Position numbers and translations under genes: made by a program
Notes under the pieces: model-generated
Told to the model about the DNA's origin: nothing
Seen by the model: only the letters and a program-made list of their open reading frames with translations
Databases searched by the model: none
Assembly: GCF_003334405.1 (NCBI RefSeq)
Contig: NZ_QOWM01000004.1
Source: Escherichia coli
Lineage (GTDB): Bacteria > Pseudomonadota > Gammaproteobacteria > Enterobacterales > Enterobacteriaceae
Strand: one strand, 5' to 3'
Length of the DNA stretch: 64,000 nt
Part shown: one piece after another, positions 44,053 to 44,321 of the stretch
Position numbering within the stretch: the first letter of the stretch is position 1
Layout of the letters: each line of letters begins with the position of its first letter

Positions 44053-44321
44053 GGAGGCTAACTTCTTGTTTACTAGTAAGCTGTTGAAAGAAATGGTAAT
44101 TTACGATAATGTTTTTTACCAGAATTCAGGGCGCAGATTCATTCAGCGCACCTAAACGATAGTAAAGCAACAATATATTTTACTAGTGTAATCACATTAG
44201 GTATCAACGGCTATATGAATTGCGTTGGCCTATATTAGCATGGAATGCGAAGCGGCTTTATCTTACTGAACGCCACACTGGCGAAAAATGTGTTCGATAG
44301 ACGCAGTGTCAGGAGGAACGA

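Follow-up and report, generated by a model that had tools for sequence, protein, structure and literature searches.

The two copies of TTTACTAGT upstream of ybjL are, in our reading, parts of two different cis-elements of this gene that resemble each other only in E. coli, an interpretation to which we give a probability of roughly 0.7. The copies lie in a window of 64,000 nucleotides, the whole stretch of E. coli DNA that was analyzed, and from its open reading frames and BLAST searches of complete E. coli genomes the locus was identified as the divergent spacer between minus-strand ybjL and plus-strand ybjM (Table 1); the gene assignment made in an earlier note on this DNA was correct. The gene order is rcdA-rybB-ybjL-ybjM-grxA, with rcdA located ~200 bp past the 3' end of ybjL and convergent with it. 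The spacer has a GC content of 39.8% compared with 51.1% for the whole window, in line with the AT-rich divergent promoter context that had been described, and it differs from the K-12 spacer by one base. Adding 845767 to a window coordinate gives the MG1655 coordinate, as checked on the sequence. For comparison we used 80 orthologous enterobacterial loci, one per species, in which the spacer was aligned.

Table 1. Coordinates of the features of the ybjL-ybjM locus, in window numbering
Feature	Position	Strand	Description
ybjL coding sequence	42367-44052	-	561 aa; annotated as putative transporter or aspartate:alanine antiporter; start codon GTG
Nearly invariant block of ~110 bp	44003-44113	-	~-60 to +50 over the ybjL start codon; holds the proximal site and AAGAAG
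Proximal site TTTACTAGTAA, including palindrome TTACTAGTAA	44069-44079		ybjL 5' leader, 17-27 nt before GTG
Reg-Seq repressor-type footprint +3 to +13	44165-44175	-	Reg-Seq supplementary tables
ybjL TSS	44178	-	RACE TSS 889945 reverse (RegulonDB, used by Reg-Seq); mapping checked on MG1655
Distal site TTTTACTAGTGTAA	44178-44191		Minus strand +1 to -13 of the ybjL promoter: start, discriminator, -10 hexamer
Reg-Seq repressor-type footprint -20 to -2	44180-44198	-	Distal site; may be 1 nt off (numbering from 0 or 1)
-10 hexamer TACACT of ybjLp	44185-44190	-	-12 to -7; 6 nt upstream of the TSS at 44178
Weak divergent TSS	44196	+	Cappable-seq 889186 (U00096.2 coordinates), score 1.8; 18 bp from 44178
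Candidate -35-like hexamer TAGCCG of ybjLp	44208-44213	-	17-bp spacer to TACACT; read by eye
Main ybjM TSS	44243	+	Cappable-seq 889233, score 14.3; -10 TATATT at 44231-44236
Reg-Seq repressor-type footprint -87 to -78	44256-44265	-	Inside conserved block GCTTTATCTGACTGG
ybjM coding sequence	44322-44699	+	125 aa inner membrane protein

Searching the window for the 9-mer TTTACTAGT revealed exactly two copies, at 44069-44077 (proximal to ybjL) and 44179-44187 (distal), 110 bp apart in register. The earlier note had reported a perfect 10-bp palindrome, TTACTAGTAA, at 44070-44079 and the 14-mer TTTTACTAGTGTAA at 44178-44191, sharing a 9-mer about 108 bp apart; both positions and the shared 9-mer were confirmed, while the 108 bp is the start-to-start distance of the two strings quoted there and not the distance in register. 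A repeated 9-mer at this spacing is not unusual by itself: the window contains 84 direct 9-mer repeats no more than 150 bp apart, compared with ~38 in shuffled sequences, and 43 perfect 10-bp palindromes, and the note's own caution about weak statistics was well placed. The unusual part of the observation is the shared CTAG core and not the 9-mer repeat. CTAG is depleted about 20-fold, with 6 copies in the 64 kb where dinucleotide shuffles predict 122, and the only two copies of ACTAGT in the window are those in the proximal and distal sites. If six CTAGs were placed at random, the chance of one pair falling within 110 bp would by our estimate be ~0.05. Across the 80 related species, which are not independent of each other, CTAG density is 4.8 per kb in the 270 bp upstream of ybjL and 0.35 per kb in the flanks. 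More CTAG is expected in AT-rich non-coding DNA, and because the species are related and the spacer is DNA of that kind, the excess is suggestive and not decisive.

Both sites are nearly fixed inside E. coli, as 5272 of 5426 complete genomes have an exact copy of the proximal 40-mer and 5416 a match to the distal 40-mer region. Across the 80 species, the proximal 11-mer reads TTTACTAGTAA in 32, TTTACCAGTAA in 26, TTTACGAGTAA in 13, TTTACTTGTAA in 6 and TTTACCGTTAA in 3. The variation concerns position 44074, the central T of the proximal CTAG, which elsewhere is T, C or G and agrees with the window in only ~40% of species, whereas the bases flanking it are at least 90% conserved. The G form, TTTACGAGTAA, is carried by E. 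albertii, E. whittamii, two other Escherichia lineages and Salmonella arizonae, so that the closest relatives of E. coli lack the proximal palindrome; in the sister Escherichia species the palindrome is broken (CGAG) while the distal site is kept. At the distal site, conservation across genera is limited to TAGTKTAATC (44184-44193, at least 90%), in contrast to TTTAC-N-NGTAA at the proximal site. The TTTAC of the distal site occurs only in five Escherichia-labelled representatives (5/80), and 30 of the 80 species have a C immediately before the distal TAG. Because both 9-mers occur together in a single one of the 80 species representatives, the pair is specific to E. coli. CTAG at both positions was observed in 10 species, compared with 12 expected under independence, and 17 of the 80 spacers have no CTAG at all. 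The earlier note had held that sites not conserved in close relatives would speak against its idea of paired operators; as a pair the sites are not conserved there, with 1/80 representatives and CGAG at the proximal position in the sister species, whereas each underlying element taken separately is. The identity of the two 9-mers is, in all likelihood, an E. coli-specific coincidence.

The distribution of the pair bears directly on the proposal that one repressor binds ACTAGT-centred sites both over the ybjL -10 and start site and within the leader, looping out the intervening 110 bp, an arrangement that would be of recent E. coli origin. All nine of nine bases around the palindromic ACTAGT are identical, and two copies of a hexamer with so depleted a core, 110 bp apart and near-fixed in E. 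coli, could reflect selection for a shared factor; in addition, the distal site lies inside a repressor-type Reg-Seq footprint that has no factor assigned to it. Looping operator pairs of this size are familiar from lac O1/O3 (92 bp) and gal OE/OI (~113 bp), and the ybjL sites resemble them in being near-identical, palindrome-containing and ~110 bp apart, with one copy at the promoter and start site, covered by a repressor-type footprint, and the other in the transcribed leader. Unlike the lac and gal pairs, the ybjL sites are not co-conserved, their conserved bases differ, and an operator role of the proximal site is only putative. The helical phasing can be read both ways: with the in vivo repeat of ~11 bp per turn the distance amounts to 10.0 turns, but at 10.5 bp per turn it amounts to 10.5 turns, which places the sites out of phase. 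Given the different conserved bases, the presence of the pair in 1/80 species, CTAG co-occurrence without excess and the commonness of 9-mer repeats at such distances, we regard a shared repressor as improbable, and the paired-operator claim of the earlier note as probably wrong; what stands of its operator idea is that the distal site falls within a published repressor-type footprint. Somewhat less probable still is the more specific scenario in which E. coli sensu stricto recently gained an ACTAGT operator in the leader, through which a single candidate repressor loops 110 bp to shut ybjL. The leader ACTAGT would then have arisen by a presumed G-to-T change at 44074 relative to the other Escherichia, and, if true, the birth of an operator pair would be visible among very close relatives.

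The preferred reading, that the two copies belong to different elements, takes the distal copy as part of the ybjL core promoter. Position 889945, the one start site that RACE has placed in this area, corresponds to the first T of the 14-mer, making the minus-strand +1 an A. On the minus strand the promoter would comprise a start at T44178, TACACT (44190-44185) as the -10 and TAGCCG (44213-44208) as a weak -35. The distal CTAG would accordingly provide the last bases of the -10 hexamer plus the discriminator, and the E. coli-specific TTTA the discriminator plus the start site. The promoter elements are kept in relatives, with TAAACT, TACACT or TAGACT on the minus strand in 77/80 species (TAAACT in 68, TACACT in 6 and TAGACT in 3; the homologous hexamer is TTAACT in 3). 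CGGCTA, the candidate -35 as read on the plus strand, is at least 90% conserved, and the stretch from it to the -10 box is free of indels; TAGCCG is a non-consensus -35 with 3/6 matches, and its assignment as such is weak. A simple consensus promoter scan of 43950-44450 gave no match, the promoters in this region being non-consensus. In favour of the reading, Shimada et al. 2014 report a SELEX peak of the RpoD holoenzyme in the spacer and flag it for H-NS. ybjL is weakly expressed and the start-site maps disagree: Kim et al. 2012 found ybjL 5' ends at 44107, with 3 reads, and at 44226, with 2, but none at 44178, and Shimada et al. 2014 predicted another ybjL promoter, TTGATA-19-TAAAAT. The Cappable-seq starts in Table 1 were taken from the plus-strand rows with the offset fixed via the ybjL coordinates, and Kim et al. 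2012 put the ybjM start at 44249; some other published start-site tables have no entry for ybjL or ybjM. The distal promoter, its start site and the repressor-type footprint over it are already catalogued, in the RACE data of RegulonDB and in Reg-Seq.

The distal site has in addition the features of a bidirectional promoter core. The published signature of such promoters (Warman et al. 2021, Nat Microbiol 6:746; summarised in PMC10268837) consists of start sites 18 bp apart, a reciprocal -11A/-7T pair and T at -18. The published minus-strand start at 44178 and the weak plus-strand start at 44196 are separated by 18 bp; A44185 and T44189 fit -11A/-7T on both strands, and T44178 and A44196 are reciprocally -18 and +1. 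The plus-strand hexamer TAGTGT (44184-44189) and the minus-strand TACACT have A44185 and T44189 in common. Because these two bases serve as -11A/-7T on both strands, the heptamer TAGTKTA is a symmetric -10 element. The symmetry of the -10 (TAGTGTA in the window, conserved as TAGTTTA in other genera) lets RNA polymerase initiate weakly on the other strand as well, at 44196. The reciprocal -11A/-7T pair would explain why TAGTKTA is so deeply conserved, and the distal site would be a bidirectional promoter core with a weak opposite start. The site shares with bidirectional sigma-70 promoters the 18-bp divergent starts, the reciprocal -11A/-7T, the T at -18 and the symmetric -10; unlike them, its plus-strand start is weak, the main ybjM promoter fires from 44243, and both strands have poor -35 elements.

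Reg-Seq (Ireland et al. 2020, eLife 9:e55308) assigns ybjL an architecture of zero activators and three repressors (0, 3), with no factor named. Its mutagenised region corresponds to 44133-44293 and the proximal site (44069-44079) lies outside. Mutations over -20 to -2 on average raise ybjL expression. The published -20 to -2 site and the distal site are essentially one and the same; the catalogue differs from the present analysis in being silent on the CTAG and palindrome content of the distal site and in that the proximal site is beyond its coverage. The signal over -20 to -2 could be brought about in two ways, either by a repressor that binds there, with H-NS as one candidate, or by an oppositely oriented RNA polymerase that occupies the symmetric -10 and competes with ybjL transcription. 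Recent work on bidirectional promoters (PMC12825309) states that RNA polymerase bound in one orientation excludes polymerase bound in the other, and explicitly raises the possibility of competition. As the -20 to -2 site overlaps the symmetric -10, its signal may reflect competition between polymerase orientations instead of a transcription factor.

That the Reg-Seq footprints are contacts of H-NS (or StpA), with the two ACTAGT sites as nucleation points or high-affinity patches, would be compatible with the two-element reading, and it is the least improbable of the alternatives, though still unlikely. With its flexible TpA steps and the A/T tracts next to it, ACTAGT would suit such binding, and the low GC content of the region (39.8%), the three scattered repressor-type footprints with no specific factor and the low number of ybjL reads in start-site profiling (2-3; Kim et al. 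2012) all agree with it. Moreover, Shimada et al. 2014 mark the spacer as H-NS-bound in genomic SELEX work. Against this, many relatives keep the conservation of the region although they have no CTAG (17 of the 80 have none), and a degenerate binder of AT-rich DNA would not impose base-by-base invariance over 110 bp. To our knowledge, H-NS neither requires ACTAGT nor has a preference for it.

An obvious candidate for CTAG cores is TrpR, since ACTAGT forms the centre of its operators at trp, aroH and aroL, which we verified in the MG1655 sequence. The proximal variants of other genera, ACGAGT and ACCAGT (with CGAG and CCAG as their centre), also occur in natural operators, those of trpR and mtr. 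If both ACTAGT sites were weak TrpR operators, ybjL and ybjM would respond to tryptophan, and a single microarray comparison showed ybjM to be down 8.6-fold in a tnaA mutant (high tryptophan), together with mtr (-5.7) and aroP (-5.3). We built a symmetric weight matrix from the five classical operators (trp, aroH, aroL, mtr, trpR) verified in MG1655; while these real operators scored 17.9-24.6 bits, the best register of the proximal site (44062-44079) reached 8.9 and the distal site 4.8, that is 9-20 bits below, and four other positions in the window outscored the proximal site. Unlike TrpR operators, both sites have a single core in place of two CTAGs 8 bp apart, and the outer GTAC...GTAC bases are missing; neither site overlaps the main ybjM promoter at 44243. 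A role as TrpR operators is therefore very improbable, and the drop of ybjM in the tnaA mutant is an unexplained lead and not support for TrpR.

About equally improbable is an operator for RcdA, a TetR-type regulator encoded next door, at the proximal site. According to the RcdA genomic-SELEX paper, the RcdA box is TTGTnTACA and is usually present in two or more copies. The stretch TTGTTTACT at 44066-44074 fits 8/9 positions of the box (7/8 specified bases), TTGTTTAC is invariant in most genera, and the rcdA gene itself is a near neighbour, ~200 bp from ybjL. However, the locus has a single match, a box this short frequently matches by chance, and the final A of the box is present in none of the species. 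Furthermore, rcdA is convergent with ybjL and not divergent, and neither ybjL nor ybjM is among the SELEX targets given in the text of the RcdA paper.

Scanning the spacer for two other regulators was negative. The TyrR box TGTAAA-N6-TTTACA had no match in the spacer at up to three mismatches; one match with two mismatches lies inside ybjL codons 8-13 (44013-44030), and the 18 matches found window-wide are below the 25 expected by chance. A search of both strands of the E. coli and S. arizonae spacers for the sigma-E pattern GGAACTT-N15-17-TCnAA (at least 9/11) found none, whereas the rybB promoter, used as a control, was found. A Salmonella sigma-E ChIP-seq peak has been labelled 'STM14_1018; ybjM' in a paper that makes no mention of rybB, and sigma-E SELEX in E. 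coli places the rybB promoter beside ybjL; this strong promoter may be what the Salmonella peak represents. Small open reading frames on either strand of the spacer (such as MNLRPEFW and a 33-codon TTG ORF) were rejected, as, judged by eye, they carry frameshifting indels among Escherichia and are not conserved in Salmonella.

In the two-element reading, the proximal copy would be part of the transcribed ybjL leader, 5' of the AAGAAG ribosome-binding stretch and within a block that runs into the first ~17 codons. Counted from the start at 44178 it occupies ~+99 to +109, directly 5' of AAGAAG, which is a 5/6 match to the Shine-Dalgarno sequence and at the same time an (AAN)3 run. The one exception inside the nearly invariant block is 44074, the base that forms CTAG, which varies freely among the 80 species. 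Conservation extends to synonymous sites of the coding sequence: the majority frequency at third positions is 0.93 in ybjL codons 2-12 compared with 0.68 in codons 31-200, and it stays at ~0.8-1.0 up to codon 18. RNAalifold revealed no conserved structure in the ybjL leader (-70 to +21 and -62 to +66) or upstream of ybjM, the consensus being essentially empty, and the minimum free energy of the ybjL initiation region is weaker than that of shuffled sequences (z = +1.6). An Rfam scan of 43500-45200 at E <= 1 returned only a spurious match to a eukaryotic lncRNA. Pairing of RybB with the ybjL initiation region was no better than with shuffled targets, and this region was dropped as a RybB target. 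The plus strand of the block carries a conserved promoter-like arrangement, TTGAA(A/T/G)-17-TA(A/C)(T/G)GT, and a weak plus-strand Cappable-seq start has been mapped at 44121. Because of this arrangement, the start at 44121 and the minus-strand 5' end at 44107, roles of the block at the DNA and at the RNA level are inseparable. Judging from its conservation, the unstructured, A/U-rich block most likely controls translation initiation, and it could do so through loading of the ribosome or S1, or as a site for an sRNA with Hfq or for a protein.

Taken as a whole, the locus is regulatory DNA of an ordinary kind, most of it already catalogued, and the picture in the field is altered little. The nearly invariant ~110-nt block over the ybjL start is a reasonable place to seek post-transcriptional control of a poorly understood transporter.

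Besides the first bidirectional promoter core (starts 44178 (-) / 44196 (+)), a possible second bidirectional promoter core was found around CTATATTAG (44230-44238), with starts at 44226 (-) and 44243 (+) lying 17 bp apart and having TATATT/TAATAT in common. Position 44243 is the main ybjM start site as mapped by Cappable-seq, and 44226 is a 5' end in the ybjL direction represented by 2 reads. This -10 sequence is specific to Escherichia; other genera carry GTTTTT at that place. A third close pair of opposite-strand starts was found at 44107 (-) and 44121 (+).

The main ybjM start site falls inside an inverted repeat (table) showing ~90% conservation among the 80 aligned enterobacterial species. 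Because RNAalifold returned a stem of just 3 bp for this repeat, its sequence may represent a DNA-binding site. In the small hairpin of the ybjM leader, counterparts of which are CGTCCACTGGACG in Enterobacter and CGCCTTCGGGCG in Citrobacter, compensatory changes appear to maintain the structure, as judged from an alignment with indels in this region; the Klebsiella/Raoultella group is without it. Other genera carry a second box spaced ~28 bp from the TAGTTTAATCG box, and there the two boxes resemble each other as direct repeats. The E. coli version of the second box, GGCTATATGAATTG, has lost CTAG.

Features in and around the ybjL-ybjM spacer and elsewhere in the window
Feature	Position	Strand	Remark
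rybB sRNA	42212-42290	-	directly downstream of ybjL
rybB sigma-E promoter, AGAACTT-16-TCTTA	42291-42330		clear
Nearly invariant block, ~110 bp	44003-44113		ybjL -60 to +50; conservation across 80 species
TyrR-box-like TGTAATTCCCATTTAACA	44013-44030		inside ybjL codons 8-13, within the invariant block
RcdA-box-like TTGTTTACT	44066-44074		8 of 9 positions of the published box TTGTnTACA
Second box, CGGCTAGT(A/N)A(G/N)AATCG	44205-44223		present in other genera
Inverted repeat, GGCA(T/A)GGA(A/T)TGCC	44236-44249		E. coli form AGCATGGAATGCG
Small hairpin CGCCACACTGGCG	44271-44283		ybjM 5' leader
Top TrpR-matrix match of the window, GTACCAGGTAAATGGTTC	55869-55886		15.4 bits

In a biofilm array of a tnaA deletion, in which tryptophan is high, ybjM was 8.6-fold down, together with mtr (-5.7) and aroP (-5.3) (PMC1899176), and the OxyR-responsive genes of a transcriptome study include ybjM (PMC4207228). 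The proximal site of the ybjL leader and the distal site explain neither of these responses. The window's best match to the TrpR matrix, built from five operators verified in MG1655, scores below the weakest real operator (17.9 bits) and falls within a minus-strand ORF of 238 aa (55767-56483). One Salmonella sigma-E ChIP-seq peak is labeled 'STM14_1018; ybjM', and this peak may really be the rybB sigma-E promoter.

Two further factor-box look-alikes lie in the ybjL leader and early codons. The TyrR-box-like sequence has 2 mismatches to TGTAAA-N6-TTTACA, a pattern showing no enrichment over the whole window (18 matches vs 25 expected). The RcdA-box-like sequence is adjoined by the rcdA gene neighbourhood, and TTGTTTAC is unchanged in most genera.

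The ~110-bp block spanning the ybjL start codon is almost unchanged in the 80 species. Synonymous sites in ybjL codons 2-17 are likewise frozen (0.93 vs 0.68 elsewhere), and no conserved RNA structure was found in the block. Judged by its conservation, the block may act in translation initiation or in sRNA/Hfq control, as an element not described before.
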